From positions 248,001 through 312,000 of the forward strand of contig QPGO01000014.1 of the NCBI GenBank assembly GCA_008632985.1: 64,000 nt of DNA, written 5' to 3'. This stretch comes from Psammoneis japonica (taxonomy: Eukaryota). The notes beneath the pieces are model-generated. The model worked only from the letters and a program-made list of their open reading frames with translations. It searched no databases and was not told where the DNA came from. A program made the position numbers and the translations under genes. This document shows, in pieces, positions 21,380 to 64,000 of the stretch. Each line of letters begins with the position of its first letter. The first letter of the stretch is position 1.

Positions 21380-22870
21380 ATCGTTAAATAAAGGGGTACA
21401 TAAAATCCAATACAAAATGTCTGACCGGTATAACAGGTACGTTTATGCTAGTCGTAGCCTCATATGGTGTATTGGAAGGGGCGGTGCGTGGGTCTGAAAT
21501 GTGTGGCGGAAGGGTCGCGCGAAGCGCGATAGGGGATGGGGAGAAAAAGGGTGGACCGAGAGTGCGGACAGACGGTTGACAGGAGGAGTTGGTAAATGAC
21601 AGTGGGGTGGCGGAGGAGAAAAGCTTGATGCGTAGAAAGATGGGTGGAGAGAGCAAAGCCAAAGTTAAGGGTGGTCGGTTGCTGCTTTTTTTAGCTCAAA
21701 TTCGGCTGAGTGGCTCATGTTTTGCAGCATGATTTTTCCTGAATTTCACCGTGCTTCACCATGGTGAAAACAACAAGCCACAAGTCTGTGACGGAGGTGG
21801 TCCGTCTGCCAACTCTCACCCATTTTATGTTTGTGATGTGTCAAAGATTGCACACACATGAAAAGTTGGTAGATGGCAAACTGCGTTTTTGAGAAATGTC
21901 AATGATTGTCATCATCGTCGTGCTTCGATCGTGGTGCTGATGGCTCTCGTTTTCGTGCGCGATCGGGTGTGACTGTGTGAACAATTCTTGCATTCAAAAA
22001 TGAGCACTGTGAAAAACCTCGCTCAAATGCAACAGCAATTTCAGGATGAACGTGGGGATGACCCCCCTCAAGACTGAGGATTTGGGAGGCCCAAAGCGAG
22101 GGTGTTGAAGTGTGGTGTGAAGAGCCAAAGCTGTCTTGAGAGAGTTGTTTCCAGGCCACGTTGGAGTTGGCAAGGAGATCGGAGGGTTCGAGGAGTGAGT
22201 TGGTGCAGGTGGAAAAGGATGGCTGAGAGTTGGAAAAGGAGGCAGGACTTGTCCAGGGTGGTTTGGGAGGAAGGGGTGGCATGGACGAAGAGGAAGTTTT
22301 GGCAGAGGTGCCAAAGAAAAAGGTGCGGAGGTGGCAGTCGATGCCACCAAGGTGGTCGAGGATGAAAGGGAGAAGGAAAAGACCGGCTTGGTTGACAGCT
22401 TCAATGATGTCGGATCTGTGAGCAGATGATGCAGAGCAGCCGAGGAGCTTGTCCCGTGTGCTGCTGAGGTGAGCCTTGTTAAGTGGGTTTTCAGGGGCAG
22501 GCAAACCAGGTGCAGGAAGCGGGGCAGCTGGCGGCACAGTGGCATCTGTGGCCAAAAATTGGTGGGTGGATGGGGCATTGGGTGGTGCAGAGCCAGGGGT
22601 GAGTTGGGCGCCTGCGTCAGCGGGGCGTTTGAGGGGGTGGTCAGATGGGAGGCCGGCAGGGTCAAGGTGTGGTGCTTGTTGTCGAGAAGAGCACAGGCCG
22701 CAGAGGGGGGCCAAAGTTTTGATTGTGGTGCAGACGGTGTCTCAGATGTGGTTCGAGAGATGGCTTTTGTGCATTTTAGAGCAGGCAAAGGCATGGTCTC
22801 CACAAGGGTCAGGGCGGGTGTGGCCGCATGGGCAGTTGTGTTGGAGCAGGTTGAAGATGTTGCAGGGAGG
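21380..22870 (-). mobile_element. 5'-truncated non-LTR retrotransposon 3' end with restriction-like endonuclease domain (degenerate), split by an insertion
   Basis: Minus strand reads CPCGHTRPDPCGDHAFAC (CCHC knuckle), NHI*DT, RPAD, LATDATV, LPFILDHLGG and WASQILSL, which continues LNFGFALSTH beyond the 21669-22067 insert. Confidence 0.7.
21669..22067. mobile_element. 399-bp non-autonomous DNA transposon, TTAA target duplication, GG...CC termini (Kolobok-like)
   Basis: aaag-TTAA|gggtggtc...gacccccc|TCAA-gact. Removal restores the reading frame ILSLNFGFAL of the host retroelement. Confidence 0.65.
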
Positions 22871-23689
22871 CGCAGCTTGCGTAAGAGAAGGAGTGGTGGC
22901 GGGGTCATTCGGGCATTTGCGCGCGACTTACATTGGACTGGCATGCAAACGGACAAGTGCGCATGGTGTTGAATTCAATTTTTTGTTAAAAAAAAATCAT
23001 CACATCATCACAACTGTCATTTTTCTCACAACAAAAATTGAAAATGACTGAAAAATTGCCACATTGCACAATGCGGCAGCGGAACAACCCACGAACAATG
23101 TTGGACGCTGTTGTTGGCAGCTTTGTGTGTCGCTCTGTCATGCGTCATGTGTTTCAGTCTCTTGACATGAGATGGGACAAACAGCATGGAAAATCAACAC
23201 CCCAACATGCACCCGCCCTGTGATCCGCCGTGTGGCTTGCCAGTCAGTGTGGGCAAGCATTGCTGCCTCCGCATTTGCCAATGTTTTCTCACCCTCCAGC
23301 GGGGATGCCCATCACTTCAGTTCCTGTCACTGAGCATTCTTTTGAGCCACCAGTGCCACACCCAACTTGGAACCCCCACCTCAATTGGTTTTGGAGAAAG
23401 ATTGGATCTGCTTTTTTTCAAGGTCGGAACATTTTGAAGCAATCACCATTCTGTCAATCTATTCTCATTCATCCTGATGTAAACGAGGGCTGGTTGCATT
23501 CTCTTTTGCGTCAACTTCTCAATGATGGGCTGTTCAAGGTCACCTCAGATTGTGGCAAGTGTGAGACACATGATCCGTTGACTCTTTGTGCCTGTGCTGA
23601 TCAGTGCAACTGCAAAAAGACTGACCGTGTTTTGAAAACTTCAGCAGACAAACTGCCAGAAATGTGCTGTTCTCCATCCTTTCAATGCA

Positions 23690-25990
23690 CACCTCCCCCA
23701 TTGTCAGTGGGGGCGCCACCGTCACATCCTCCCTTGCCCCAAAATCATCCCATGCATTCAGATCCAGATTGTGGCCCAGTTCTTGAGGCACCAACAAATG
23801 CCTCTGACTCACCTCCTTTGGTGCCAACAAAACATTTGCATTGTTTCTATTTCTTGGGTGATTTGAGGATGTTCAAACAGTCTGTCTTGTGTGAAAAGCT
23901 CTTTGGTCAAGGCATGTGTGATGCCAAGATAGAAGAGATCTGCCAAAGTCCATGCAAGAACCAGATTTTCAATGTGAATCAGAAAGGACTCTGCAGAATT
24001 GGTCAGGAGTCATTGCTTCGTAAGCTTGCAGAATTTGTGGCTCAACTGGAAGAGTTGCCAAAGAAGCAGGCACTGCAGTCAGTTTTCGAAACCGCTTCAG
24101 AACGAAGCGCGCACAAAGCAGCTCATGAAAGGGCACAACGAAAGTCTTGCACGGAACAAACACAGTGCAATGTTGCGAATGACAAACCATCATTGAGTGC
24201 CATGGACACCTCTGGGAAGTCTTCTTGTTTTGACAGCGCACAGGAGAATCTAGAGTGACTGTTGCAAAATGAGTCTCAAGAAAAGGACGACAGAGCAGAA
24301 TCTAGAAAGCAGATTCTAGAAAGCAAGGTGAAAAGTGCATGTTGTCCACAAGGTCTCCCGGGAGCAAAATGGAGCAAGAAGCCGGAGGCAAATCCTCATC
24401 AGGAATCCTCGAATGATCTCGATGTCAGCAAGAATTCTCCTCCATTGTTTTGATGCATGCCTCCTGCATTGTCAGCGGGGGTGCCACCGTTGTGTCCTCC
24501 CTTGCACCAAAATCATCCCATGCACTCAGATCTGGATCGTGGCCCAGTTTTTGAGGCACCAACAAATCTGTCTCACTCATCTCCGTTGGTGCCAACAAAG
24601 TTTCAGAATTGTTTCCACTTCTTGGGCAATTTGAAGACATCCAAACATTCTGTCTTGCATGAAAAGCCTTTTGATCAAGGCATGTGTGATGCTGAGATAG
24701 AAGAGATCTGCCAAAGTCTGTGCAAGAACCAGGTTTTCAATGTGAATCAGAAAGAACTCTGCAGAATTGGTGAGGAAATGTTGCTTCGCAAGCTTGCAGA
24801 ATTTGCAGCTCAACTGGAAGAATTGCCAACGAAGCGGGCATTGCAGTCAGTTTTTGAAACCACTTCAGAATGAAACGTGAACAGCAAAGCAGCTCGTGAA
24901 AGGATGCAACAAAAGTCTCGCATGGAACAAATGCAGTGCAATGTCGTGAACGACAAACCATCATTGAGTGCCATGGACACCTCTGGGAAGTCTTCTGGTT
25001 TTGTCAGTGCACAGAATCTAGAAAAACTGTTGCAAAATGAGTCTTGAGAAAAGGACGACAGAGTGGAATCTAGAAAGCGGAATCTAGAAAGCGAGGCAAA
25101 AAGCACGTGTTGTCATGAACGTCTCCCGGGAGCAAAACAGAGCAAGAAGCCTGAGGCCAATCCTTGTCAGGAATCCTCAAATGATCTCAATGTTGGCAAG
25201 AACTCTCCTCCATTGTTTTGACACATGCCTCTTGCATTGTCAGCAGGGGTGCCACCGTTGTGTCCTCCCTTGCACCAAAATTATCCCACACATTCAGATC
25301 CGGATCGTGGCCCAGTTTTTGAGGTGCCAACAAATCCGTCTGACTTGTCTCCGTTGGTGCCAACAAAGTTTCAGAATTGTTTCTACTTCTTGGGCAATTT
25401 GAGGATGTCCAAACATTCTGTCTTGTGTGAAAAGCCTTTTGATCAAGGCATGTGCAATGCCGAGACAGAAGAGATCTGCCAAAAAGTCTGTGCAAGAACC
25501 AGGTTTTCAACATGAATGAGAAAGGACTGTGCAGAATTGGTGAGGAAATGTTGCTTCACAAGCTTGCAGAATTTGCAGCTCAGCTGGAAAAATTGCCAAC
25601 GAAGTGGGCATTGCAGTCAGTTTTTGAAACCACTTCAGAACAAAATGCAAACAGCAAAGCAGCTTGTGAAAGGACACAATGAAAGTCTCCCACAGAACAA
25701 ATGCAGAGCAATGTCGCTGCCGACAAACCATCATTGAGTGCCGTGGACACATCTGGCAAGTCTTCTGGTTTTGTCAGCACCCACGAAAATCTAGAAAAGC
25801 TTTTGCAAAACAAGTCTCAAGAAAAGGACGCTGGAGCGGACAGAAAGTGGAATCTTGAAAGTGAGGCAAGAAGCAAATGTTGCAATGAAGCTCTTCTGAG
25901 AGTGAGACAGAGCAAGAAGTCTGAGGGGTGATTTCTTGTCAGGAATCCTTGAATGATCTCGATGTCAACAAGATTTCTCCTCCTTGGGTG
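23690..25990 (+). repeat. Three tandem ~768-bp (256-codon) units in a degenerate coding region of an unidentified element
   Basis: ttgtcag...gccaccgt...cctcccttgc recurs at 23701, 24469 and 25237 (spacing 768). More diverged partial modules lie at ~26150-26800. Confidence 0.9.
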
Positions 25991-28028
25991 GGGCATGCAC
26001 CTTGCTCTCCAACTGCAGGCACATTGCATCAGCATCTCATTTGCAACCATTTGCAACCCTTTGCAACCCTTTGCTTTCATCACCAATGAAGTCCACACCC
26101 GCAGTCCTCAATGCTCCAACAAAGTCCCCTCACCAAGTTTCCTCAGCTTCAACAAGGTCCTTGGACCCAAAAGCTGTGTGCTTCTCGAGACATTTGTGGA
26201 CATCCAGCAAATGTTTGTTGATCAGAAAATTTAAACATCAAGGCATCGGTGCAACGGAGACTAAGAAGATGTGCCAGACACTGCACGAACACAATTTTTT
26301 CAAGGTCAATGATGAAGGCCTTTGCAGGATTGTCCAAGATTCTGTTCAAGAAATGTGCGACCAAATTGAAAGATTTGCCAATGAAGTGGGTGTTGCACTC
26401 ATGTGTGAAACCGTTGCAGGCTTGACTGACTTTTTGCAGTTCTCAGGACATTGTTGTGTGTCGAAAGGGTGCATGTTGCATCAAAAATGCATCAGCCAAG
26501 GGATCCGGGAGAACGAGATCAGAAAGATGTGCTGAACGCTCTGCAAGAACAAGCTTTTTGTGGCCAATGCCAAAGGCCTTTGCATGATCACCCGAAGGCC
26601 ACAGAACAAACTCAAGAAACTTGTGACTCAGTTGAAAGAATTGCCAACAAAGCGGGTTCTACAATTGCTTTTCGAAACCTCTTCAGAATGAAAGGACTTG
26701 AATGTGGCTTGTGAAAGGCCCGGGCAGTCATTCAAAGAGCATGAGAACAATGTCAAGCGGCCAAGTTTTCTGAACAAATGCAGAGCCCTTGTTGGAGAAC
26801 AGCAGATGATGGTTGCATCAGAGCAAACACACTCCCGGAAAAGGATGTGCCAAGCTCTAGTCTGCAGCAGATGATGAGAACTGATCAAAAGATGACAGTG
26901 TGGGATCTCCAAATCGAGGGCATCAGCAGCAAAGATTGTCAGAAGTCTCTGCACGAAGCAGAAATGCGCCAAACACACGACAACGCGGCGACAAGGGGAT
27001 CGACCAGTCGGCATCACAAGGGGGGCACGATTGCAATGATTTGCAAAACCACAACCTGCAGAGACTGATGAACATTGCCAAGAAGCTGAGTGCAGAGACA
27101 GACTGGGGGGCAGCTGACGAGCTGGAAACCGCTGGTGAAAGCTGCGGCTGTCCAACGGCGCATTTGCAGCATGCAGTGCATGTGGTGGACGGTGCCTTCA
27201 GCCTGCTGGCAGAGTGAAAATGATGACTTGCCGTGTCGACCCTGGTTTGTCAGGCTGGGCCTTCTCGTCATCAACCCAGCTTGCTGGGCTCTGTGTGAGG
27301 GAGGCAGGTGCCTGGCATGGTGCATTTGCAATCACTTCTGCTCTAGAGAGAAAGTGCAGGGTGCAGCACCAGCGCTGCACATCACACGAAAGATGATGAC
27401 AACAACTGAGCCTCGCGCCTCTGTCTTTTCGAAACTTTGCGCAGCACAGTCTTCTGAGGCAAGGCACAAAGATGACCGACTTTTCCTCCCTTGAAACAAT
27501 TTGTTCGAAGGACATGCCGGCACACCATGTTCACGCACACGACACGAAGAGCATGCACACCGCACCGACCGGCATTGGACAGGGCCCTCCACTCCATCCA
27601 AGGATAGAGGGCCCCACTGCTGCCGGTAGAGAGCAGTACAGTAGCTAGCCACTAAGTAGCACCTTAGCGAGTACACACTGTACTGACGACGACTCTGACC
27701 CGTCGTACTCGTGGCGGAGGGGTGTAATTCGGGGTGTAATTTTGGGGTGTAAAAACGCGCGACGCGCGTTTTTACACCTCCAAAAGAAAATTACAGCAAA
27801 CAAATAGGCCTCCAGAGGCTTGTACTATTTTTTTCCTGTAATTTTCGTGCGAGAGCAGACCGCATTGGCGGCAGAAAACGCAAAACACCTTGCGCCGCGA
27901 TCCGTTTGTCATTTAGTATCCATCTAAAGACAACACGAAACGACTTGTAAGACAACGATAGACTACGTTGTCTGTAGATACAACGCTTCTGTAGATACAA
28001 CGCTTGACTACAACGTCTATTAAGCATC

Positions 28029-29435
28029 ATGAGTGCTGCGGCCTCTATGGAAGATTTTGATCTCTGTATGATCATTCTGCTTCTACAGTTTCTTCTTCTT
28101 GAAATCAATACTTTGATATTGAATGCAAAGCAAGCCCTTGACGAGTTGATTAAGGAAGAGCTACGAAGAAACCGAACCCCTGAACGAGAGAAAGATCGTC
28201 CATCATGGAAATCTCTTTTCGAATCGACGAGCAACAGGGTGTTCCGTCGCATGTTTCGCATGAAAAAGAAATCATTCGTGAAACTGTGCAATAAAGTTTG
28301 CGACAAAGTGGGAAAAGACACTTTCTTACCAGAAGATTACATCAACAGCACGGAATACAAGAAGAAGACAGATGCTGCGACAGGATTCAGGGGTGGTGCC
28401 ATTCCTGGAGAGATGAAAATGGCCATTGGTATCAGGTTGTTAGCTGGCGCGAGTTACTTGGATTTGTTGTGGTCGTTCAGCGTGTCGGACAGAACGGTTT
28501 ACAAGACTTTTCATCTTTTTGTGGCATGGGTTCTTCTTACATTTGATTTTCCGCTAGTGCCAGCGCTCCGAAGGAAAGATTGGGCATTTCTGAATCACAT
28601 AAGTCAAGAATTTTCGCAATCGTCCTCCGGCGTTTTCCTCGGCGTTATTGGTGCAATAGATGGTTTGTGCATTCGTATCCGCTGTCCATTCTTATCAGAA
28701 GCTGATGACCCCGGAAACTACTACTCTAGGAAAGGATTCTTTGCCCTGAACGTGCAGGCAATCTGTGACAGTAAGAAAAGAATTTTGTGGGTTAGTCCAT
28801 GGCACAAAGGATCCTCTCATGACTCTACTGCTTTCGATGAAACCGGATTGTCAAGCTTGCTGCAAGAGTTGGCAGACGAGCTAGAACGACTCGGACTTTT
28901 TCTTGTTGGTGATTCGGCGTACAACTTGGTGAAGACGCTCTTGATACCCTATGCCGATGCTCGCCCTGGCTCTGACGAGGATGCATTCAACTTCTGGCTG
29001 AGCAATAGCAGAATTACGATCGAGTGCGCGTTTGGTGAAATCATCATGCGCTGGGGAATATTTTGGCGCACGATGAGATTTTCCCTGCCACTTACCAAGG
29101 ATGTTGTCAAAGCTGCAATGCTTCTTCATAACTTCCTAATTGATGAAAGGGAAGAGGAGAGCGACCCAGAAGATGTAGAATACTTCAGGGACTTCTCTCT
29201 TAACAGCATGTCGGACGAGGCGGCAGTGTCGAGCGAGGTCCCGGAGGCGCTTGTCACTGACAACAATGAACCACGACCTCGCGGCCGCCGAAGCAACGAC
29301 GAGATGGAGTCCAAAAGGACGGCGGAGAAGATTCGAGACAATCTTCTCCTGTCCTTGAGTTTGGCCGGCAAAGGAAGACCGGAAAGAAACGGGACAAAGT
29401 ACAATAAGTATGGTCATGTCTACATGGATTACTAG
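28029..29435 (+). CDS. Intact PIF/Harbinger DDE transposase (DDE_Tnp_4/HARBI1-like)
   Basis: GAIDG, YYSRKGFFALNVQAICD, GSSHDS, LVGDSAY, FNFWLSNSRITIECAFG and LLHNF motifs. Confidence 0.93.
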   Translation: MSAAASMEDFDLCMIILLLQFLLLEINTLILNAKQALDELIKEELRRNRTPEREKDRPSWKSLFESTSNRVFRRMFRMKKKSFVKLCNKVCDKVGKDTFLPEDYINSTEYKKKTDAATGFRGGAIPGEMKMAIGIRLLAGASYLDLLWSFSVSDRTVYKTFHLFVAWVLLTFDFPLVPALRRKDWAFLNHISQEFSQSSSGVFLGVIGAIDGLCIRIRCPFLSEADDPGNYYSRKGFFALNVQAICDSKKRILWVSPWHKGSSHDSTAFDETGLSSLLQELADELERLGLFLVGDSAYNLVKTLLIPYADARPGSDEDAFNFWLSNSRITIECAFGEIIMRWGIFWRTMRFSLPLTKDVVKAAMLLHNFLIDEREEESDPEDVEYFRDFSLNSMSDEAAVSSEVPEALVTDNNEPRPRGRRSNDEMESKRTAEKIRDNLLLSLSLAGKGRPERNGTKYNKYGHVYMDY

Positions 29436-29443
29436 CTAGACAT

Positions 29444-29806: not shown

Positions 29807-31180
29807 TCATTGCCTACCTGCCGCAGGGCTATCTTGTAGCGACAGCTTCTTCACTTCATGGGCAATCTCTGTACGTCGTTTCTTGATTACGCGAAGCATC
29901 GCTGCCTTGCTGTCAGGGCTAATGTCCTCCGACATCGCTGCTCGATCGCGACGTTCGCCTTGTTTTTCAAAAGAGTCAAACAATGAATCAACCTTCGTCG
30001 ATTCAGCTTCCTTCTCCTTTCGGGCAAGAATGTCAGAAGCCTTTTGTGTCAAACCGCCGACGCGCTCCTGTTGACTCTCGAGCTTTGCCAGGTTCTGTTG
30101 GTGCTGGTCTTTCACCGTCACTTTCTTGGGAGGTGTGGAATCATCTTGGGCTCCCTCAAAACCGGATTCATTCTTCACCCAGTCTTTCACTTGTCCACCA
30201 CTGCCACTGGCCAGCAGAAATCCTTCTTTCCGGTCAAGCAAGCAAACCCAGAGCAACCACCTGTTGCCGCCGCAATGGTCTGGGAAATCTTCGATCCTCT
30301 TGGGGCCATTGCCAGTCTCTTTGCCCCATTTGCGTGAGGCTTTTTTGCATTTTGGCCTCAAGTGTGAGAGCCAAACTTCTTTCATGAAATCAGACTCGTG
30401 TTTCTTGGTGATGATTGCGACGGCATTGGGATCGGTCATCAGTCGCATCTTCCGGCACATCCTTGACAATGCACCTAATTCCCTCCGGACGAGAGACAAC
30501 AAACTCGGCATTTTCAAAGTCCTCCTCTTGAATCTGTGCGAAGAATGCATCCGTCGGATCGTTGGACAGGTTTTGTTTGGCACGGCCCTTTTTGCCAGTC
30601 ATTGTTCCCTGCACACTGCCACGGCACTTTTGTTGAAGCATGGCGGCGGCCGCACGAATCGCATCTTCGGGAGTGCGATTTTCCTGGTGCTTGCTCGTGG
30701 TGGAGTGCCAACAATTCTCAAGGTTCGAAATCACCATTGGGATCCCACCGTGCTCGTCGTCGTTCTGGAGCATGAAGACCTTGTCATTCTTTCCACACTT
30801 CTGAAGGCTTGGGTGCACCTCCGTGCAGTCTACATGTTTCCAGTGCGAACCAAAACCTTGGCAATGGCATCCTTGCTTCTTGTTTGGTTTGTTGGAAGGT
30901 TGGGAAACCTGTTGGCCCTCCATTGCTTGTAAAGGGCAGTCGAAAACTCACCCATTACAGGGCACTTTAAAGTTTTTGCTTTGCTCTTTGCATCTTGAAC
31001 GCCTTCATCTTGAAGACTTGTCATCAGTGAGTGCAAAGCAGGGTGCAGCTTCTTGTCTTCAGCTGCCTGGTGTGGCTCGGCCATGGCTGGAGCACTTTGA
31101 GTTGAACGGAAGCGTTGCAACAGTCTTACAACAGATAACTCTCCACCTTAGCGTAATGTCCCCGTCAGGTGTATGTTGCA
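29807..31180 (-). pseudogene. Harbinger accessory (putative DNA-binding) ORF, frameshifted and TpA-depleted
   Basis: Overlapping minus ORFs 30830-31120, 30390-30923 and 29807-30583. Trp-rich segment VWLSHLRPKCKKASRKWGKETG...CGGNRWLLWVCLLD. No Tyr. Confidence 0.6.
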
Positions 31181-31513
31181 GTAACGAATAATCGTAGAGG
31201 ACATTGTTGGCTGACGTGATTTCCCGCCAGCTGCTTTTTGGGGTCGGAGGGAGGTGGATTTTTACAGAGGGGTAGTTTCACACTCTCGTACTCGTGCGAA
31301 AATCGGCTGTAATTTTGGGGTGTAAAATTAGTTCGTTTGGGGCAATAATCTAAAGAGGCATCGTACAATTCAAAATGACCAACAAAATGTCCGTCATCTT
31401 CTGCAAAGAGACTCTAGTACTTTTTTAGAGACGCGTTCTCACAATACACGGTTGTGTTGCTTCAACGCATTGATTTGTTTTGGGTTTTATCATCTTTAGT
31501 AGGATGGTCTGTA

Positions 31514-37079: not shown

Positions 37080-37939
37080 CTTGTCAAGAACGAAGATTGA
37101 GGAACATTCTTTGAAGGCAGCCTACTCTAGCTCAAACGAACAACATGATTATCTTCAATACCCAAGGAGTCGAGATCGTAGTCAAATATGTAACACCATA
37201 GCGCCAGACGAGATCGAAGGCGGTTAGCGCTATATCTATGATTTGGTGAATACCTATACAGCATGCTAATGACGGCACACAAATTGTGAATAGCTGCAGC
37301 GCGGCCATAAAAATGTATCGTTTTGCACCGCTGGCAGGCACTCCAGCCGCATTCGTCTCTGCAGAGACATTGTGTTCCTGAGATCACCAGCAGCTTTTTT
37401 TTCTTCCCAACCTGTGTGAGTTGGGTCAAAACTGCCTGAGGTTTTGTGCTTTCTCCTGTCAAAGCACGCGCCATTTCCTCTCTCTCTCTCTCGAACGAAC
37501 TCTCTCTGCTTTTTCCAGAGGCCTCAGAACAATGACTCAACTTGGCCCCAAAAGCAAAGCAAAAAAAAAAGTTCAATCGGGGGGGGGGGGGGGGGGCAAG
37601 AACTCAATCAATCAATCAACTCAACGATTGCCAGTTAATGCTGGCACCCTCTACGGACTTTTGGCCGGCTGGTTACAGGACTCTGCAGAGAAATGCTCCA
37701 GACTGGCATCTAAAGAAGCCTGTTTGAACAAGGCACACTTGATGTGCAATCAAGGAGCATCTCCGTCAGTTGACCTGCCTGAGCAGGGCCCCAGTGCAGG
37801 ATGCTGCACGGCTGAAATGGAGCCATTGGTTTTTCAGATTTGATGGAACAGGTCCCCGGCACAGCTGATGACTTTTAAACAAACCAAACTTGAAATCTGC
37901 AGCATGAGGTCCAAGTCAAAGGTGCAACAGTTGGGCATG

Positions 37940-51692: not shown

Positions 51693-51976
51693 ACCGTTCC
51701 TTTCCGTGGGAACTTCCATTCCTTCTTCAACCGTTGCTCTCGCGATAAATAGAGACGATCCGAAGCATACTCTGTATTTCAATTTCCAGCTTTTGCACCG
51801 TGTAACCAACAGGCGATTGACAACTATGAGCGTTGCCTGTGACTGTCTTTTTTTTTCTGAAACGCCACCATAATGAATTCCTCTATTCGGCTCCTATGTT
51901 TCTTTACTTCATCACTCAGTGATTCAAGCTTTCGAGCAAGACCAACGTCCGCTCTTTTCCACCAATGGGATCATGG

Positions 51977-53178
51977 TTACAGTTCCGATGATGATTCAAC
52001 ATTCTCTAGTGACGACGACGAGTCCAACGCTTGATCATTCTCGGGTGCCAAGGATTGTTTGAACCAATTCCATAGGCCAGCATGGGGGTACTTGCGTCGT
52101 AATCTTCTAAATTTGGGGCCCAAATAAACTAAAAAGTTGGGCAATCCCTGCATGGGAGTCGAAATGGTCGCAAGCAACAACAGAGCAAAAGCCGGTGTCC
52201 CGCCATGTATGCTTTGTTGAATACGAACAATCTGTTGCGTTTTGCAGCTACGAGTGAGATTGAATGAAACGATCAGCAAATAAACCAACAAAGAGGAAGA
52301 ATAATACTCACGGTTAGAGCAATCCAATTGAAGTAAAAGGCCCCAGCATACATGAAACACCGCATCGCCACCTTTTTCGCATGACGATTCGATTCTTCAG
52401 ACAGCGCTCTTGGCACAGACGAAGAAACGTAAGGCGTTTTATTCTCCTGAAACTGATCCCTTGTCTCTATTTGCTCTTCGTCTTCTTCCCTTGTTGTTCT
52501 ATTTACGGATGATTTGAATCGGTATCGATTCGACGAACGCTCGACTCTCCACACATGCAGAAAGATTAGAATGACATTGATCGTGACAATAAGAATCATA
52601 CACCACAACGGCCCATAAAAAAAGACCCATCTAAAGATATCAGCATACCGACCCCGAGTGCATTCGCCATCTTTGCACCCAGAAGGGAGTGAAGCAATCC
52701 AGCACCACAGATTAGCATTGTTGTAGAGCGTCAAGGGCAAGCCCGCAATGGCTGTGGATAACCCCCAAAAGAGTGGAATACCGTGAAGATGCTTTTCCAT
52801 TCGCATTATTTTTGCTTCCTTCCATCCATGACAAATCACCACCAGATAGTAAATCGATAAACTGGCATTGTAAAAGGAACTTGCAATTCCGAATTGCGTG
52901 AAGAATCCCTGGGCACTGCACGTTCCAGTTGTTCCCGAGGCCCACAGCGTGGCTTCATTTTTGGGTATCGGCCACGTGGAAAGACCCAACCAAAAGGAAC
53001 TCGACATGTCCACAAGAGAAATTCCACAGAGCAATCGATGAAAGACTTTAGATCGCTTTCGCCCATCCCGAAGAACCGTAAACACAATGAGAGAACTGAA
53101 AATCAGTGACGCAAAACCCGTCACCTTGGGAACAATCGCCAGAGCTCGCTGCTGCGTCAGTGAGAAACTGCTGCTCAT
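51977..53178 (-). CDS. 7-TM GPCR-like protein (cAMP-receptor-like); exons 53178-52312, 52231-51977
   Basis: FHRLLCGISLVD, CSAQGFFTQFG, YNASLSIYY, LWCWIA and PMQGLPNFLVY motifs, with GT-AG intron 52311-52232. Confidence 0.85.
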
Positions 53179-54298: not shown

Positions 54299-55674
54299 AC
54301 AACAAAATGTGTCATTGAGTTGGTCGATGTGATTAAGGTAAAGACGCATATAGGAACGGGTTAAAGTTCAATTTTCAATGCCTAGTTAACACGAACGTGC
54401 AACTGATTCAATCCGACTCAAACGTCGTTGCGTAAACTTTCAGGTCCTCCAATCTCTTTAGCAGTAGTGTCCTCCAACGCAATCAATCTACTCTCTCGTG
54501 AACCTTGATCCTGAGCTGGCTGTCTAGCTCCTTATGAATACACCAATCGATGCCGCACAATGCCTTAGCTGCATGATGGCCAATTCGTCGATTGCCAAGT
54601 CAAAGCAAGAGTCTGTTCGGAACGCACTGTGGCTTTTTCTAAACAAGCATCTCTGCGGTCACCATCTCAATCTCGCAGTGTGCCTGTGCCAGTGCCAGCA
54701 CCAGGTTTCAGAGAAAGTGAAAATGCTCAGTGAGGCACAGCTCCTTCTGTGACCCATTTAAATCATCTGCTGGTCAGCATGCAAACTTTGCCTGCGAGCA
54801 AGATGCAGGCCACAGAGAAAGAAACCTCAGCTCTGGTTGCGGATGATGCCAGCAACAATTCTTTTTCTGAAGGCAAGTGCTGGCTCCCATGCCATGGTTC
54901 AGTGGTGGCAAATGGCGCCCATTTGCTGGAGCAATGTTGGGTTGGTCATGTGCTCACATTCCTTGAGAAACTCAATGAATGATGAATGATTGGAGATGGC
55001 TTCAAGCTCTCGAGGCAAACTCTGGCAAAAAGGCATGCTTGAGATCAAGTTCCAACTTCAGGGGGGCATCAAAGCATTGAAGCATGACTCTCGGGTTCTG
55101 ACCTGCTGCTTTGTCAGCACTGCATTGTCTTTGAGATGCCCTCATTTTCAGCAAACTGCAGCGCTTTGCTGTGTCACCAAAAACCAAATTCAGAGAGAGC
55201 AACAAAGAAGTTTCTGTCATCCTTCCCCCTTGCTGAGTGGGACGATGTGCACCTCAACTCAGATGGGCCATTTGCAGCTGGCAGCAGCACTCTGCTCCCT
55301 GAATCATTGAGGTTGTTGTCTTTTTCACATGACAGATTCTGAAGAAGATGGGCCAGCACCTTGCTTTCAACAACACCGTGCTTTGCAAGCCGAGCTTTCA
55401 AGACAACACAGCACCATCCAAAGCCCCACAAAACCAGCCATTCCTTGCATGTCAAGTTGCTCTTCCAGTGCACATCACTCTGTTGCTTTTGTGACAAGAT
55501 CCATGTTGTTGGTTTGTGGGTGTCTGCAGCTGCGTGCATTGCCAATGAGTTGCACAAGATGCTGGGGGCACAGCAGCCACAAAAGTGTTGCACAAGCAAA
55601 GCTCCATTTTCTGCACATGCTCCAGATTGCTCTTTTTCACATCTTTTGCAATGTGCAGCTGCCAATGAGAGTTG

Positions 55675-56100
55675 GTGCATCACGGCGACATGTTGCAGCC
55701 TTTAAATCTCACAAAGGGCGTGACAAAAATGACCTTTTGTCTGCATGCACACTGCATTGTGAATTCACAGCGGAGTGGTTCATCGCAACCATTGGGCAGG
55801 AGGCCAGGGGTTCGAAACCCTGAGTGGGAGTTGTCTGCAGCAACGTTGATCACTGTCGAACGCGCAAAACTCTGTGCAGTTCTGCACGTTCCTTCGTGCG
55901 TGCCCACACTGTTCCGCCAAAACCATGCAGTGTCAGCACACGTTAGCAAAGAGCCGTGTGGATGCGTGACACATGGGGAGGAGTGCAGTGCACAGCTGCT
56001 GACAAGAGCCAGTGCATCACGGCGACGTGTTGCAGCCTTTAAATGTCACAAAGGGCGTGACAAAAATGACCTTTTGTCTGCATGCACGCTGCACTTTGAA
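55675..56100 (+). repeat. Pair of ~89-bp direct repeats 337 bp apart
   Basis: gtgcatcacggcgac(a/g)tgttgcagcctttaaat...gaccttttgtctgcatgcac at 55675 and 56012. Confidence 0.9.
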
Positions 56101-59100
56101 GTGCTGAGCAGGCAGCATGAGCCCCTGGTTGTGAATGAACAAGCACAATTTCAGGAGCTCTGAGGGGCAACAATGATGGCAGCATCTGTGGCAGCAGCAG
56201 CCAGCCAAACTGCAAAGCCTCCACTGCAACAAGAAAAGAAGAGAGGGGCACATCCCAGGTGCTTCTGTCTGCAGTCTGGTCACTTTCAACACGCATGATG
56301 AGGGCGCCTTTTTTGTCTCACTTTGTCACAAAAACATGGCACTTTGAAGGTGTCTTTGTTTTGTGCTGCTGTTTGCACACTGTCACAGCTGCTCCAGCAG
56401 TGATGTTCTTGCAAGAGTGGCAATGAGAAGGAGGGGAGCATCGAGCATCTTGGTTGCCCCTTTTTGCAGGTTGTGCCCCTGGCAGCTTGGTTGAATTTCA
56501 GACTGTGGCCCAAATGTCAAAGAAGGCAGCAGCAGTGCACTGTGACTTTTGCACTGTTTTTGTGAGGACACTGCAAAAAAAAATGTGAGTGGGGGGTGGT
56601 TGGCTGGAAAAAGTCACAACTTTTTTTCAGCCCCTCTGCCCACCAGCTCTCCATGGCATCTGCTGACATTGTTGTCATCAAAAGAATCTGCTCCCTTTTT
56701 GACTCTGTTTCTTTTTGTTCAACCATCACTCGGACAGTGGCAGACATTGTTGCACTGGGAGTTGTTGCCAACATTGACTTGATTTCCATCAACTGCCAGC
56801 AGCACACATCAGGACCAATTCATCTGCTCAAACAATCCAAAGCTCCAGCGCTGCATTCTTTCTTGAAAGCACTCACCATGTGTTCTTGAGCTTTTCCACA
56901 GAGCTCCTGAAAGTGCTCAATTTCACACTGTGTTGGCTGGACTTGTTGAGGATCTGCACTGCTGTCGTTGATGTTGACCAACCCAGGTGCTCTGGATTCT
57001 TTGGTCTTTGGCAGCAAACAAGTTGTGCTGGCTTCTCCATCTTTTCTGAAACCTCTGCATTGGCTGCAAACCCTTGAGCAGCTGTTGTCTCTTTGGCTGT
57101 TGTCCTGGTCATTCTTTGGATGTTTTCAAGAGCCTCAGCACCCACTTGCACCCAAGAACTTGCACCTGATTTGCGCCAGCAACATTCTGAAGTCATCCAT
57201 TTCTTTCACATGTGAAGCCATGGATTTGAACTCTGCTGGTGCTTTTTCTTGGTGTCTGTTGCTGCTTGTTGCTTTCCATCTCTGTCATTTTCAAAAGTGT
57301 TGGTTTGAGCTCTGCCTGGGTGGAAAGAATTTCTGTGTTTTTTGCACAATTTCTGTTGTTGCAAATTGAAACAACTGACCCAGAGTTGTCCTCATTTTGG
57401 CATCACTGTCCTCCAATGCTTTTTGCTGCAAGTCTTTCTGTTGTTCCTCCCATCTTTGCCCTCCTGCACTCTCTTTGTTGTTGGCTGCTGAGCTGTCAAG
57501 AACCTGCAAGGCAAGAAGCCCAAGCAATGAGATCTCACACACTGGCAAATGGTCCAAACTGATGGTGGGGCCTGCGCAGATTCAGTCAGCAGACCACAGC
57601 AGGAAACTCAAATGTGCCCAGCAACCTGTGTCTCATTTCCTCTTTCTTGTCCAACTCACAGTGTTGCATTTTGTGTGTCATGGCTTGTGCTAAAGAAAAT
57701 GGCATGCACAAGTTCAAAGGGGGCAGTTGCTGTTTCTTGTGCTCCCCACAGGTGGCCACCTGTCATCAGATGTCTTGGGTCTTTCCCTGTAACCTGAGCC
57801 ATGCAACTCCAGTCCCTTCCATGCCCACCTTCTGCAAGGTGGCAGCTGGCACAACAGATGCTTGCTGTGGATGGATGAACAGAACAGCCCCACAGGCCAA
57901 TCGTGAAGGCCGCCACATCACCAACCAAATCAAGGCAATTGATGTGTGCCAACCACTGGCTTCAGATCCCTGCCAAGGCATGCATCTGCCATGCACACCA
58001 AGCTTCGCGCATTCCACAAGATCAAAGGCAAATCACTGCCAGCTCATGCAGTGGAGCTTGTGAGGAAACAACACTCGAAGGACATCCTGAGAACCACAAT
58101 GGGAGAAATGAGCTTTGATCATCTCCTTCCAAACTGCCTTTTCCTTTCATTGACAGCAGTGCTTGGCATTTCAAGAGGTCACTCAAGAGACAAGTGGTGG
58201 TGGCCAAAATGCAATTCAATGGTTTTGCCTTTGAGCAGAAGGGCAAAATTTGCAATGCAACAAGCGTTGCTGTGAGGCACTGAGACAATGTGTGACTTGG
58301 TCAGTTGTGTGCTGCTGCTGATGAAAGACCATGTGGCATTGCAGTTCAAGAGGTGAGCTGTGGCTTTCAGTCTAGACTCAGCTGGATGTGAACATTGACA
58401 GTTTGATCTCCTAAAAATTCTGTCCTTTGTGGCTTCACCAACCCGTCATTTGCTCCTTGGTTTTTTGCTGAGCCTGCAATGGATGCTGTGTCTTCATCAA
58501 ACAGACCCAAATCATTGTTGCAAATTGTTGCAGACCAGTTGCAAGCTGTCTTCTTTGCTTCCCCATCTTTGGGATGCATTCCTTCAGGGGCAACATGCCC
58601 GGAGTCTGACTTCAGTGCTGCCGCACACTGGACCAGGAGACAAAGACATGTGGACATTTTTCAGACATGAAATCATCCTTGACATGCTTCCACTGGTTGG
58701 CAAGCTCATCTTTCAGCATGAGTTTCCCCTTTTGTGGATCCAGGTGATTTGGTGGCACAACCAGTCTAGAGCCAAAGTTTCAATGTGGCCACAACCTTTT
58801 TTGCATTTCTTTCAAACTTGGATTGGACAAGGAGGCATGCCCAGAAGACACTGCAGCTCTGGCCCCACATCAAGCACATGACATTGGGGCCAGCACTGGT
58901 GTCAGAATGACAAAACAGCGGAACTTGGCCTTCAACTGTGCCATTTGTTGCTTCGTGCATCCAGTCAATGGCTTTCTTGCATGCCACATTTCCCTCCCCC
59001 CCCCCCCCCCCACACACACACACACACACACACATCCACAGAAATGACACCACAAGATGACTTTGTTGAAACACAAAATCACCAGAGCTGCTGTGAAAAG

Positions 59101-60249
59101 CTGTCCTTTGGTTGTTTTTTAAGGCAATTTTCCAGGCTCTTGCAACAGCCTTGCATCAAGACTGGTGGCAACACCCTCTCAAAAGCCTCCCCTGACCCCT
59201 GGCTTTCCTGTTTGAGTGGGCAGTCCTGAAGACAATTGGACAGACAGAAGTGATGGAGTCCCACATGGACAATGATGGGTTCATCCAGGACAGCCTCAAT
59301 GCATTGTCTGTTGCTGTCCTTCACCACCACAGCAGCAACAGCTTCTTTGATCAGCTTCTTTGAAGGTTCTCACCTGAGCACACCATGTGCCTTTTGCCAA
59401 CAGCAAAACAAAGCACTGCAGTTTCAAAATCCTTCCATGCTTCCTCATGGTCAACCAACATCATCAGCCAATCAACAGAGGCACAAGCAGAAGCAGAGCC
59501 CATGCTCCAACCAGCTCAATGCTTGGCTGTTGTGGAGTTGAGTGTCATCACAGCTGGGAAGTGATCCAAAGCTTCCAGTGTTCTCAGATTCCCAGTGGAA
59601 AAATCCCCCTGACACAAGTTCTGCACTCCCACGCTTTGGCAGCCAATTTGCACAAGTTTAAAAAAGGTGGCAGTTCACTGCTGTTGTCCCCAAAGCCAAC
59701 AAGCTACACGTGTTCCTTGACGTCCTGACAAAAGCACAGAAAAATCCAGGAACTTGTTCAGATGGTCTTCCTCATTGGCAGGTGTCAGCAACTCAAAACT
59801 GCTGAAGAAGCAGACCCATTTCTCCATGGCTGCAGGTTGTTTTGCCAATGCTCAATGCCCTTCATTCTCCAACTCATCAATGGAAAACCCTGTCCCCAAA
59901 AACATGAGGAAGTGCGGCTCAGAGTTGGAAATGAGTTCATTGTCTTTGTGGGCTGCCTTGGTCACTGCTGAGAAATTGGAGTGTGCTTGTTCTCTGTTTT
60001 TGCTCAAGAAGCAACCTGGTTTCTCCAGAAGATGCTGCAACTCATCAATGAAAACAGACCATTTCCCTTGGATTGCTTCCCGGGCATCCTCGGCTGTTGA
60101 TTCCATGATCAATCCTTCTTCTTCAACACAAGTCTGGAGCACATCCCAAAACAGATCCTTGCCCAAAACGTCCTCTGGAAAGAGCTGATGCAAGAGCCAT
60201 TCCTTTGAACTTTGAACCAAACCCATCCAATTTCTGCTCTAGAAGGTCA

Positions 60250-61750
60250 GTGCCGGATGTGCGGCAGAATGATGCACCTCCAGAATGCCATCCTGAGATT
60301 CACAACACTGTTGATGTCTCCCTCTGTTGTGATTGTTTGTGCCATGTTTCCCACTTTGCATGACATCCTCACAAGGTCTTGGGAACCAGGATTCCCAGCA
60401 AAGTTGCCCCCTGACAGGCAGCGGCATTGACTGCAATTGGCGCTCATGCTTCCAGTTGCAGAAAACCTGTGGAGGCACTTTGCACACAGAATCATGGCAG
60501 CTGCATTGTCAACTCCTGCAAGTTCAAAGTTCAGCCTCTGTGCTGCTCCAGGTGTTGAGCTTTTTAACTTTGACACAGCAGCCTGCACTGCTCCATCACC
60601 CATGGTCACAAGTGGTGCTCAAAGTCAGGATGTGCCGTGCTGTGACAATGATGTGTCCACACAACATTTGATTGCTTGGAGCTCTTTTTCACTCAGTGTG
60701 GCAACTTTGTTTTGCACTGGGTTCAAGCACTTGACACAACAGACTGACTTTCTCTGTGACAGTTGGGTGCACATCCACATGGCCTTGCTTGGACACAAAC
60801 AGCCCCTTGGCCACCCACATGTGAGACATCTCAGTTGGTGGTCTTGTGCCACCAGCGTCAAATGGGTTCTCTCCAGCTGGCATCATGGCAGCACCCACAC
60901 TCTTGATCTCTTCAGCAAACTTGTCAATCATCTTGTGAATGCAGTTGGCCATGTTGACCTTTGCCTGGCCCTTGTGAGTGAAGTCCAGGGTCATCCCAAG
61001 GTTTTTCATTGTGCTTCTTTTTTCATGTTGCAACAACTTTGCCATGGCTTGTCTGTGCATTTTGTCAAGCCAGCTCAGAACTTGTCATTTGCCTTTAGAT
61101 TGATGTGGCCTGACAGCAGATCATGCATCCACACAGAAGTGCAGAGTGTGCTGCTTGCTGTTGACCAATTGACTGGCAATGCATGGGCTGTGTGGGTCAA
61201 TTTTGAACCAAATTTTCTCCAAATCTTCACAAAATTGTTTGTGCCACAGAAGAGTTGTGACCAACATGCAGTGCATGGCGCTGATGACTTGGACACAGAG
61301 GACTCTCTTTCCCTTCATTGCCACACATGGTCCACACAGGTTGGGATCAATGCTTGCTGGCACATCAACCAACACTCCTGAGGTCTTTGTCATGATCCAG
61401 TCTTTGCTTTCCTTGGGTTCTGGGATCAAAGTCTGGATGAATGTGTTTGGCACATCAGTGCTCATCACATCACACTCTTCCATGGCATGAACAATGGCTG
61501 TCATCAGCACTCCTTCCAACAATGACGTTGGGCTGGCTGACTCATTCTTGTCCAGCCATTCTCTTGATTGTTTTCTGTTGTGAGCCATTTGCCCTTTTGT
61601 GCAACCATGTTGCTTCTCCACTGGGAACACCAAGGCAACCATGGCCTTGGCCCTCTCACTCAGAGTCATGTCTTTGACAAATGTGGGGGTGCAAAGCACA
61701 CTCTGTTGCAGAGTTGTTCAATCTCCTTTTCTGAGCCATTGTGCCCTTTC
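60250..61750 (-). mobile_element. Degenerate Ty1/Copia (CoDi-like) RT-RNase H
   Basis: SASPTSLLEGVLMTAIVHAMEECDVMSTDVPNTFIQT, LLWHKQFCEDLEKIWFKIDPHSPCIA, HTLHFCVD, and RNase H MTMGDGA...ELAGVDNA. Confidence 0.9.
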
Positions 61751-63774
61751 TGGCCAAATGCTTTCAGCCCTTTGCACAACAAATGTTGTTGGGCAAAGGA
61801 GGTGCCCTTTCCTGATTCGAGTTGATCATCAACATCACACATCTTGTGCTTTGCCTCATGTCTTCCAAAGATCTTGCCAAATGCATGCTCTGTTCATGCT
61901 CACTCTTTGTGAAATGGGTGATTTTCTCTTTGAGATCTTTGCACACAGCATTGCAAGCATTGCTTTTTGGTGACAAAGGATGAAACTTCATCTCAGGCTG
62001 AAAGCTTTTCTCACTGCAGGTCTTCTTCTCTTTTGGTTGCAAGATTTGTTGCTCTTGTCACCTCTGCCACACAACCACAACTTTGGCCTTGGTCTCTTCT
62101 GCTTCTTGTTTTGCCCCCTCCTTTGCCACTCATTGTGCAGATGTTCACTGCAGGTTGGCATTTTGCAAGCACTCAATGTGCTGGTGCCAGCAACTCTTTG
62201 GAGCACATGTTGAACTGGCAAGTCAATGTTGCCAAAAGGGAGTCCCACCAGGCTTCCTGTGATTCTCACTTCACTTGTCTTGGCAGTCTGTGTTGTCTGT
62301 GGGTTGGCGCCAAAAGGTGCCTGGATGAACTGCAAACTCATGCAGTGACAGGTGCCTGCTGATGCCAAATGACAGGCCAAATGATTCACTCCAAAGAGTG
62401 AGACAAGCCAAAAGCCAAAGGCAAATGATCAATGATGGTGAGGAGGTCCTCCACCACACAGAGAATCATTCTTTGAGCCACATCAGGGGACAAAACATCT
62501 TTTCTTCAACGCACCCATGGGTCTGTTGCAACTGGCACCCATTTTCTGAAGCAGTGCAAGGTTGGTTGCTTGCTCACTGACAATGCTTGAAAAAACTCAT
62601 CAAGCAACAAGTGGGGGGTGAGAACCTTGAAAATCTTGGCTTGAGCCCTCACAACAACAAAAACTGGCAAGGTGCACTCAAAAACAAGTTCCAACTTGAA
62701 GGCATCAACACATTGAAGCAAGACCATGGGTTTGTGACCTGCCACTTTTGTCAGCATCACATTGTCTCCAAGACACCTTTCTTCAGCATGCACTGCAGCT
62801 GGGCCATGCAGCCAGATTTGTGACAGGATGGAGAAGTCTTGCTTGCCTTCTCCCCTTCTTGTGTGTGTGGGATGATGCACAGTTCAGCTCAGGTGGGTCA
62901 TTTGCAGCTGATGGCAATGCTGCTCCTCCAGATTGTTGACTTCCTTGCAAGAAACATTTTCAAAATGATGAGCCAGCATCTTCTTTTCAACCATGTGCTG
63001 GGGGGTGGCTGCAGCAGGTTGAGCTTTCAAAGCACACCACCACACATCACCATCTCAAGCACTCTGCTGCAAAACTGTGTCTTGTGCGTCAAGTCACTCT
63101 CCCCACACATGTCAGGCACTGCTTTCATGACAAGATCCATGTTGTCATTTTTGAAGTCTGTGACTGCATGCCTGTTGAATGAGCTCCAATGGACAGATGC
63201 TGGGGGCACAGCAGCAACCAAATGAGCTCAGTGTGTGCAAAGTTTTTGTCCTGCACACACCAAACACATTGCTCTCTCTTCAATTTTGAAAGCTGGTGGC
63301 AAGAGCTCCTCCTGGTTGTCAAGCTGCAAGCACAACTTTGGCAGCTCACATGGGGCAGCAACAATGGCGTGGCAGTGGCATGGCCAAGCTGTGCACAAAA
63401 AGCTGACAGAACACCAAAGGTCGACAATGACAGAGGTGTGAAAGACTCCCTAAAGTGCCAGGACTGTGACAACACGAGCACTGGCAGATGAGAAAGTGAG
63501 AAGCAGATCTCAGAGAGATCTGCTCGTCCATCTAAATGGTCCAGCCATCATCCGCATCCAGTCTGTCCATCCTGTGGTGGGTGCAGATGGGCTGACACCC
63601 TCCCCTGATCTGCAACATCTCAAGATGGAGAACAGTGCAGATCAAACCAAAGAACATGGATGATGTGAGGAAAAAACAGAGAGACTGGACATGGGACATG
63701 ACAAGTGTCCATGCCCAATGCGCAATCAAGCAAGGGGGCAATTCACAGCAGGGAGGCCACCGCGGAAAAAAATG

Positions 63775-64000
63775 TCAACAGCAGTGTCCCATCATGCGTC
63801 GAGCGTGGCGAGCGTGTGGCACCCAGCCAAGAGCCTTGGCAAGGTCATCGCTGGGGTTGACAATGCCAGGGACATGTCTTGTGACAATCTTGCCCACTTC
63901 CTTCCATTCTTGGATCGCAAAAAACTGGATCTCAATGTGACAGGAGCGCTCGGTCGGAATCGAGTGATTGATGATCTTGATTGCCGATTCGTTGTCAACA
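63775..64000 (-). mobile_element. 3' end of a second Copia pol (RNase H C-terminus); continues beyond window
   Basis: VDNESAIKIINHSIPTERSCHIEIQFFAIQEW...HVPGIVNPSDDLAKALGWVPHARHARRMMGH. Confidence 0.85.

Follow-up and report, generated by a model that had tools for sequence, protein, structure and literature searches.

Near-complete loss of TpA from blocks of inserted DNA in the diatom Psammoneis japonica indicates a probable TpA-directed hypermutation process

Introduction

The closest described precedent for the sequences reported here comes from the chlorarachniophyte Bigelowiella natans. According to the main text of a recent preprint, 231 of the 302 nuclear mutations in mutation-accumulation lines of this species fell in two integrated viral regions, and 230 of these 231 were A-to-G or T-to-C changes, every one of them at a TpA dinucleotide. 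Mutations arose there at about 6e-7 per site per generation, within a span of about 1e-7 to 1e-6, and affected only some of the lines. The genome carries 124 clusters that are poor in TpA and rich in CpA and TpG, and its TpA-poor coding sequences are enriched for DDE endonuclease and reverse-transcriptase domains. Its authors propose an ADAT2 homologue as the agent, with the enzyme itself unproven, and the terms "flanking", "trinucleotide", "CpG" and "diatom" are absent from that main text (Mettrop et al. 2026, bioRxiv 10.64898/2026.01.13.699255). Here we describe a stretch of 64,000 nucleotides from Psammoneis japonica (GenBank assembly GCA_008632985.1, contig QPGO01000014.1, positions 248,001 to 312,000; hereafter the window) in which five domains have lost nearly all of their TA dinucleotides.

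The two cases share several characteristics, including A:T-to-G:C changes only, placed at TpA and giving TpG or CpA depending on the strand, a confinement to inserted regions, and a long-term signature that is TpA-poor and rich in CpA and TpG. They differ in lineage, with a diatom-lineage stramenopile here and a rhizarian there, and in degree, as TA makes up 0.27% of the dinucleotides in the erased blocks of our window whereas a region of nucleocytoplasmic large DNA virus (NCLDV) origin in B. natans still holds 3.3%. The targets there are viral inserts, whereas here they are a long interspersed nuclear element (LINE), a Copia element, tandem repeats and a host gene fragment. A preference for a 3' pyrimidine and a separable decay of CpG are seen here, and the de novo events demonstrated in the B. 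natans lines are inferred in our case from standing sequence. Thus, the kind of process is already known, and what is new is its occurrence in another major lineage, its saturation, its action on transposons and a gene fragment, and its flank preference.

Fungal repeat-induced point mutation (RIP) also represents an irreversible, dinucleotide-biased transition hypermutation of non-genic inserts, and likewise leaves elements that similarity searches miss. However, as usually described, RIP changes C to T mainly by converting CpA to TpA, which creates TpA and lowers GC content, and it is triggered by duplication. In our window TpA is destroyed, GC content is unchanged, and the state of a sequence does not follow from its present copy number. 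Ordinary decay of 5-methylcytosine (5mC) at CpG is shared by four of the five domains, where CG has gone to TG or CA and arginine codons to those for cysteine, histidine, glutamine, tryptophan or stop, but such decay cannot remove TA, and one domain has lost TA and kept its CpG. Hypermutation of mobile elements by deaminases is known for ADAR and APOBEC enzymes as well. APOBEC gives C-to-T and G-to-A changes, whereas ADAR acts on double-stranded RNA with other neighbour preferences, and neither is known to give a strict, saturating loss of TpA in DNA-type elements and gene fragments.

An earlier note on this DNA, made from its letters alone, had proposed a TpA-erasing mutator as possibly novel, a claim that the B. 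natans preprint has since overtaken. Our literature search found TpA-directed hypermutation only in that chlorarachniophyte (bioRxiv 10.64898/2026.01.13.699255). A search aimed at diatoms returned no report of TpA erasure, and searches on diatom deaminases together with transposons, and on adenine deamination as genome defence, gave nothing else relevant.

Results and Discussion

Five domains have almost no TA

The window was scanned by per-kb dinucleotide counts and by mapping the gaps between successive TA dinucleotides. Five TA-erased domains were found, which we call D1 (1-1484), D2 (21870-27605), D2b (29920-30831), D3 (37316-46567) and D4 (54759-64000). They comprise 26,626 of the 64,000 bases, and the remaining 37,374 bases served as the normal comparison set. 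Four of the domains had been recognized in the earlier note as multi-kb tracts with few TA, with borders accurate to about 200 bp, and D2b is an addition.

The erased bases hold 72 TA, corresponding to an observed/expected ratio (o/e) of 0.04, where about 996 would be expected at the outside frequency of 0.0374. Outside there are 1399 TA (o/e 0.56). Consecutive 1-kb windows in the erased stretches have TA o/e values of 0.00-0.11 and mean TG/CA o/e values of 1.53-1.98, the borders are sharp, and flanking open reading frames (ORFs) have TA o/e values of 0.3-0.8. Counts of CG fall as well (449, o/e 0.28, versus 2089, o/e 0.96, outside), and TA is lost more completely than CG. The complementary steps are enriched, with TG at 2959 (o/e 1.62) versus 2807 (1.22) outside and CA at 2717 (1.80) versus 2742 (1.16).

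Conversion of TA and CG into TG and CA predicts exactly that the sum of these four pyrimidine-purine (YR) steps is conserved and that GC content holds steady, and this is what is observed. The summed share of TA, CG, TG and CA among dinucleotides is nearly equal in erased (0.233) and outside DNA (0.242), the gain in TG and CA (0.065) largely offsets the deficit in TA and CG (0.074), and GC content is 0.494 versus 0.482. The AA dinucleotide is unchanged (o/e 1.28 versus 1.20). The direction opposite to RIP that the earlier note had assigned is borne out by these values.

Six-frame translations of the erased DNA contain 0.04% tyrosine versus 2.14% outside, in agreement with the earlier description of them as poor in tyrosine and raised in cysteine and histidine (Cys 5.83% versus 3.77%; His 4.67% versus 3.48%). 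Stop codons are distributed as TAA 59, TAG 58 and TGA 1280, and long ORFs occur in all frames because the two TA-containing stops are nearly gone (117 in total).

The domains differ in their CpG content. D1 has 4 TA, 26 CG and 338 TG plus CA in 1484 bp, and none of its ORFs has a Pfam match. D2 has 26 TA and 162 CG in 5736 bp, with per-kb TA o/e values of 0.06-0.10 and CpG o/e values of 0.33-0.57. In D3 there are 23 TA, including 6 in a nested miniature inverted-repeat transposable element (MITE), and 119 CG in 9252 bp between sharp borders, and D4, which runs off the end of the window, has 17 TA and 91 CG in 9242 bp. The CpG o/e is 0.04-0.57 in four of the five domains. The exception is D2b, where TA is erased (2 in 912 bp), CpG is at normal frequency (51 CG) and the excess of TG and CA is only modest. 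This weakens the methylation-coupled mechanism that had been suggested earlier, and D2b is possibly the youngest of the erased blocks, or else one without methylation. The domains might be read as an age series, with CpG o/e values of about 0.85, 0.33-0.57 and 0.04-0.38, all with TA near zero. If this reading holds, the loss of TpA would be much faster than the decay of CpG.

Ancestors of the erased sequences carried TA

The part of D3 at 37900-42299 (minus strand, extent by tblastn) is a degenerate LINE, or non-LTR retrotransposon (LTR, long terminal repeat), which its sequence relatives place among those of the apurinic/apyrimidinic endonuclease (APE) type. Its frame at 38393-40603 (minus) has 737 codons with only 4 stops, and when these are read as X it matches 3537 proteins, the best at an E value of 3.7e-81, against proteins of about 1900 amino acids. 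Five of the matches were scanned with Pfam. RVT_1 is present in three (P0128 at 30.6 bits over a cut-off of 29.6, two below the cut-off) and Exo_endo_phos in two (P0130 at 27.8 bits over a cut-off of 24.5, P0128 below the cut-off). A degenerate Ty1/Copia reverse-transcriptase remnant, also with 4 in-frame stops, was recognized by six-frame reading in D4 at 60527-61717 (minus), and has 17 homologues at E<=1e-5, all of which carry PF07727.

The LINE was aligned with 33 of the 150 listed homologues, chosen because each matched most of the query in a single stretch. Tyrosine occurs in at least 30% of these homologues at 18 columns, where the remnant has Cys 7 times, His 2, Leu 3, Lys 2, and Ala, Arg, Gln and Phe once each, with no Tyr. 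When each homologue was used as the query in turn as a control (574 cells), the values were Tyr 46%, Cys 1.4% and His 7%. The Copia remnant has Cys 4, His 4 and other residues 4 at 12 tyrosine columns, again with no Tyr, where controls give Tyr 67% and His 2.4%. For the two elements together, Cys or His stands at 17 of 30 tyrosine-conserved columns and Tyr at none. The arginine columns show the CpG counterpart of this loss. Only 6 of 35 are kept in the LINE (Cys 5, His 5, Trp 4, Gln 3, stop 1) and 2 of 15 in the Copia element (Gln 4, Cys 2, Trp 1, His 1).

A third comparison is provided by host DNA. D3 carries, at 45083-45736 (plus), a hypermutated copy of the Cys-rich C-terminal module of nearby subtilase genes, which was recovered by BLAST in a purine/pyrimidine alphabet and then aligned. 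It holds 2 TA where two gene modules have 26 and 22, and 4 CG where they have 33 and 44. At 7 sites with TA in both gene modules the copy has TG 4 times, CA twice, CG once and TA never, and at 8 sites with CG in both it has TG 5 times, CA once and others twice.

Relatives of the elements are in the normal state. The earlier note had considered that intact family consensus sequences might themselves be free of TpA, and the relatives speak against this: the LINE (33) and Copia (17) relatives are normal in Tyr, no fetched homologue of either is Tyr-free, and the lowest has 1.0% Tyr. In addition, TA o/e values are 0.45-1.09 (median 0.63) at 80 metagenome loci that hold Copia relatives. Two of these loci, L071 and L063, have CpG o/e values of 0.09 and 0.14 with TA at 0.51 and 0.83, and thus represent CpG decay without TpA erasure. 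Because the changes can be polarized and relatives have normal TA, we conclude that the ancestors had TA, that the erased state is not a family trait, and that CpG decay alone is insufficient.

These findings make it highly improbable that the erased DNA came from a TA-avoiding source or was shaped by selection against TA, with no mutator involved. Such an origin would fit the mild under-representation of TA throughout the window, including the value of 0.56 outside the domains. However, the coding remnants are dead, each carrying 4 in-frame stops, with Cys or His in place of Tyr and with Cys, His, Gln, Trp or stop in place of Arg, their relatives have normal TA and Tyr, the gain in TG and CA matches the deficit in TA and CG, and unrelated sequence classes are in the same state.

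The changes were made in resident DNA

D2 contains three tandem copies of about 768 bp each (23672-25983, plus strand) that have diverged mainly by swaps among TG, CA, CG and TA. Their nucleotide identity is 80-85%, but it rises to 94-96% in the purine/pyrimidine alphabet. Among 759 ungapped columns, 183 differ, and 98 of these fall within dinucleotide sites that are YR in all copies. The 57 variable YR sites are CA/TG 27, CA/CG/TG 14, CG/TG 7, CA/CG 4, CA/TA 5 and CG/TA 0. The 27 CA/TG sites are ambiguous in origin, and most of them probably came from TA because TA is lost far more completely than CG.

Variation among copies gives a similar picture. An element of about 790 bp with terminal inverted repeats (TIRs), located at 46720-47512, has 49-bp inverted ends that are 94% identical and a depth of 330-470, and the copy in the window has normal TA. 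Among the variants listed for other contigs (copies or alleles), with 83 further variants beyond those listed, 8 of 8 in this element are A>G or T>C at TpA, a direction read from their context. In a control stretch that cross-matches a subtilase paralogue, 2 of the 23 listed variants are at TpA.

The sequences might instead have arrived already hypermutated, if an ADAR-like activity had edited A to I in the retroelement RNA ahead of its reverse transcription. The two identified elements are indeed retrotransposons, prior hypermutation would account for the sharp borders, and a T-run at about 37393-37401, which by eye looks like the minus-strand poly(A) of the LINE, is no more than about 80 bp from the left border of D3 (37316). 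However, the tandem copies have diverged in place by TG/CA swaps, a host gene-module copy is erased, and a DNA-type TIR element has TpA-only variants. The erasure, about 97% complete, is confined strictly to TpA, with AA unchanged, and the survivors are TAG and TAA, whereas a 3' G is favoured by ADARs. The ADAR-type reading, which we consider very unlikely, is largely refuted by the tandem repeat and the gene fragment. The B. natans mutations, for their part, arose in integrated DNA during culture, as the main text of that preprint describes (bioRxiv 10.64898/2026.01.13.699255).

With these polarized and in-place lines of evidence, five in number, it is well supported that the loss of TA was mutational, through a strand-symmetric A:T-to-G:C change at TpA. 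The strand-symmetric mutator that the earlier note had proposed is upheld here by the tyrosine columns and by the normal Tyr and TA of relatives.

TAY is erased faster than TAR

The 72 surviving TA are mostly in TTAA (16), CTAG (15), CTAA (12) and TTAG (6), which are the four rarest NTAN words in normal DNA. When survival was counted on both strands, leaving out the nested MITE and scaling the expectation to normal DNA, it was 0 of 597 expected for RTAY (R, purine; Y, pyrimidine), 36 of 1064 (3.4%) for YTAY/RTAR, and 88 of 313 (28%) for YTAR. By trinucleotide, the values are TAC 2.1%, TAT 1.2%, TAA 11.9% and TAG 14.0%. This implies a target of 5'-TAY-3'. All three classes are fitted by a model in which mutation at the A of TAY, on either strand, is about four times as fast as at the A of TAR.

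Under this model, a Tyr codon preceded by a pyrimidine should become Cys, and one preceded by a purine either Cys or His. The observed outcomes are Cys 7 and His 0 after a pyrimidine, and Cys 4 and His 6 after a purine (hypergeometric probability about 0.02). Moreover, all 9 TpA variants among those listed lie in TAY on one strand. The flank preference is new, and the co-occurring CpG decay is separable from the loss of TpA.

Adenine deaminases of the TadA/ADAT2 kind provide a possible parallel. Their natural substrate is tRNA. We know of no natural activity of this kind directed at chromatin DNA. The likeness to the TAY rule lies in A-to-inosine conversion with a 5' pyrimidine, as early TadA-derived base editors are reported to prefer YAC and an engineered one YAY over YAR (PMC12528748). 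We take this resemblance of motifs as a lead, not a test.

The same process and targets could also be explained if the modified base were the thymine of R-T-A, with a dioxygenase of the TET/JBP type giving 5-hydroxymethyl- or 5-formyl-uracil, which mispairs with G and consequently yields T-to-C changes. TpA is palindromic and the outcome is strand-symmetric, and each TAY is at the same time an RTA in the complementary strand. Oxidized thymines are mutagenic toward T-to-C, and 5-hydroxymethyluracil (5hmU) in dinoflagellates favours TpA. However, we encountered no corresponding preference for a thymine oxidase, no such gene appears in the domain scans of the window, and the hierarchy of TAY over TAR matches the preference published for TadA-type deaminases, as given in PMC12528748. 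A thymine modification is therefore unlikely in our view, if not to the extent of the RNA-editing alternative.

Erasure does not follow present copy number

The erasing process had been described earlier as repeat-targeted, and this part of the proposal is not supported. D3 is at single-copy depth, a nested MITE with about 200 copies is unmutated, an intact Harbinger-type ORF between erased domains is TA-normal, and erasure has also reached a fragment of a host gene family. Present copy number thus does not decide erasure.

The MITE is a TIR element of 243 bp (41031-41273) nested in the LINE and depleted in neither TA nor CpG, as it keeps 6 TA and many CpG inside D3. It has 21-bp inverted ends and a tRNA-like GGTTCGATTCC box. 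Its bin depth is 12,940 versus about 65 for single-copy sequence, with loose ends at both borders. It was spared either because it is younger than the erasure or because it is too short to be targeted. The PIF/Harbinger-type transposase ORF is open and located at 28008-29435 (plus; Pfam DDE_Tnp_4, 9.4e-23) between two erased domains. It has normal TA (35-47 per kb), and no TIRs were found around it.

The content of the erased blocks is hidden from ordinary annotation. Pfam finds no transposable element domain in 283 stop-to-stop ORFs of the erased DNA, a scan that took in 133 of 133 ORFs of at least 95 amino acids and 150 of 178 ORFs of 55-94 amino acids, the 28 left out all being in 59788-64000. 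The LINE and Copia identities named in the earlier note stand, but a second LINE type and erased DNA transposons were not found among these Pfam-scanned ORFs. An ordinary self-BLAST of the window shows no LTRs and no kinship between domains, whereas self-comparison in the purine/pyrimidine alphabet, which is blind to transitions, revealed repeats that ordinary BLAST had missed. Among these is a diverged pair of direct-repeat arms in D4, at 54908-55621 and 62528-63261 (both plus), with 82% purine/pyrimidine and 64% nucleotide identity, 161 transitions, 87 transversions and 33 CA/TG sites. The pair possibly represents LTRs.

The erased state is present in the reads

Of the words sampled from 36801-46800, 91% occur in one public DNA run. 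The erased D3 is reproduced by contigs assembled solely from the reads of this run, with records of 1496 and 3567 letters that differ from the assembly at 2 and 1 letters. D3 in the assembly and in the read contigs shows 4 differences, which are TA/TG, CA/TA and two TG/CG. All four are exchanges between YR steps and, together with the TpA variants of the 790-bp TIR element, they provide the only hints of mutations arising de novo here. Contig depth over D3 is 63-85, like that of flanking genes (61-77), with the MITE bin as the single exception. An assembly or base-calling artefact is therefore the least probable of all the explanations considered here. We found no point in its favour other than that the only DNA run with this stretch is possibly from the source sample. 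It is contradicted by read contigs of 1.5-3.6 kb that repeat the erased sequence with 1-2 differences each, by an erasure that ends at sharp borders and spares a nested MITE, and by coherent changes at the protein level.

A proposed mechanism

We consider it quite probable that the window records TpA-directed hypermutation of the same kind as in B. natans. Under this proposal, P. japonica would run a DNA-level, locus-confined hypermutation that converts TA to TG or CA in blocks of old inserted DNA. The process would be indifferent to what the DNA encodes, whether a LINE, a Copia element, tandem repeats or a stray copy of a host gene module. Either strand could be attacked, with TAY favoured about fourfold over TAR, so that only YTAR would linger, and near-saturation would be reached ahead of the ordinary CpG-to-TpG/CpA decay that also marks most blocks. 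The agent might be a TadA/ADAT2-like deaminase acting on silenced chromatin, with adenine converted to inosine and read as G, and its role might be genome defence. What the sequence shows is the pattern, its direction, its flank preference and its lack of a tie to present copy number, whereas the enzyme, the targeting signal and the biological role are inferred.

Several observations weigh against this proposal. The public DNA run is possibly from the assembly's own sample, and its agreement with the assembly is thus not independent support. Domain scans of the 64-kb window, like the earlier note, find no causal enzyme gene and no such deaminase or oxidase domain. Of the 57 variable YR sites in the tandem copies, 25 clearly go back to CpG and only 5 clearly to TA, and the other 27 could have come from either. 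For the 8 variants in the 790-bp TIR element, direction was read from context, without an outgroup. The flank rule is a rate difference and not absolute. In the gene-module copy, RTAR has gone to CA 6 times and to TG twice, YTAY to TG twice and to CA twice, and RTAY to TG 5 times and to CA twice, and in the asymmetric classes 8 outcomes fit the rule and 4 do not, in an alignment that is only about 65% identical. Likewise, one of the five CA/TA tandem sites is a YTAY gone to CA. Finally, the chemical change could have struck either the A of TAY or its partner T in RTA, as sequence does not distinguish the two.

A broader possibility is that a heterochromatin-directed adenine deaminase derived from TadA/ADAT, or a thymine modifier acting at the same base pair, constitutes a TAY-recognizing defence common to stramenopiles and rhizarians. 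We put this forward tentatively, as something well short of an even chance. If true, the trait would date back to the ancestor of much of the SAR clade (stramenopiles, alveolates and rhizarians), as a mirror image of RIP that is faster than 5mC decay, and it would include an A-to-G editor of DNA that occurs in nature. An enzyme of natural origin that makes A-to-G edits in double-stranded genomic DNA would be of interest for base editing.

The presence of the signature at saturation in a diatom indicates that the process is not an oddity of one species. Diatoms dominate ecologically, and several of their species lend themselves to genetic work. Three mechanistic constraints are added by the window: a rule of TAY over TAR that resembles TadA-type deaminases, independence from present copy number, and separability from CpG decay. 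Erased blocks of this kind escape ordinary repeat and domain annotation, as with the 283 ORFs above, and can be recovered by comparison in the purine/pyrimidine alphabet or by profile searches that read through stops.

Other features of the window

Two long ORFs that had been cited earlier as examples, 38434-39381 (minus) and 60437-61381 (plus), are not coding frames of the elements, whose real frames are the LINE and Copia frames given above. Six weak Pfam matches below the cut-off (HTH_32, Agro_virD5, Zn_ribbon_2, AAA_35, CagD and RavA_C) were taken as chance. The D2b ORFs 29810-30598 (minus) and 30078-30932 (plus) are protein-like and have no family in Pfam or Protein Atlas. By eye, the translation of 63780-64000 (minus) resembles the C-terminal end of a Copia polyprotein on the RNase H/integrase side (...DN.SAI...H..I...QEW...), and if so a second Copia fragment would run off the end of the window. 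Homopolymer runs within the erased domains include G18 at 37579-37596, G14 at 41657-41670, and C16 followed by (CA)11 at 58996-59034. There is also a (CT)7 run at 37478-37491.

Host genes occupy the TA-normal part of the window. These include a DsrE/DsrF-like ORF (7840-8766), a nuclear cap-binding (MIF4G_like) ORF (10266-13499; family also by Protein Atlas), a fragment of a major facilitator superfamily (MFS) transporter (14497-15303, minus) and a type I phosphodiesterase (18906-20645). Two subtilase (Peptidase_S8) paralogues are located at 31418-34549 and 47621-51873, and their Cys-rich C-terminal modules are repeated (50167-50798 is similar to 50976-51615). Among named sequences, the best relatives of a subtilase and of a phosphodiesterase all come from diatoms (Skeletonema, Thalassiosira, Odontella, Minutocellus, Ditylum, Cyclotella and Leptocylindrus) at 38-50% identity, none near identity. 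The ORFs are long, and the gene homologies by themselves point to a diatom or a near relative and away from Bigelowiella.

No RNA data set is listed as containing the stretch. In a second run of the same sample, recorded as "DNA?", the genes at 48.4-53 kb are covered by contigs that are spliced and end in poly-T, and 37670-47674 is not covered; this run was not used as evidence in either direction. It looks RNA-derived because one contig skips 80 bases (52232-52311, GT..AG, minus strand) inside a rhodopsin-family seven-transmembrane (7TM) ORF at 52273-53178, and another ends in a T-run at 48420.

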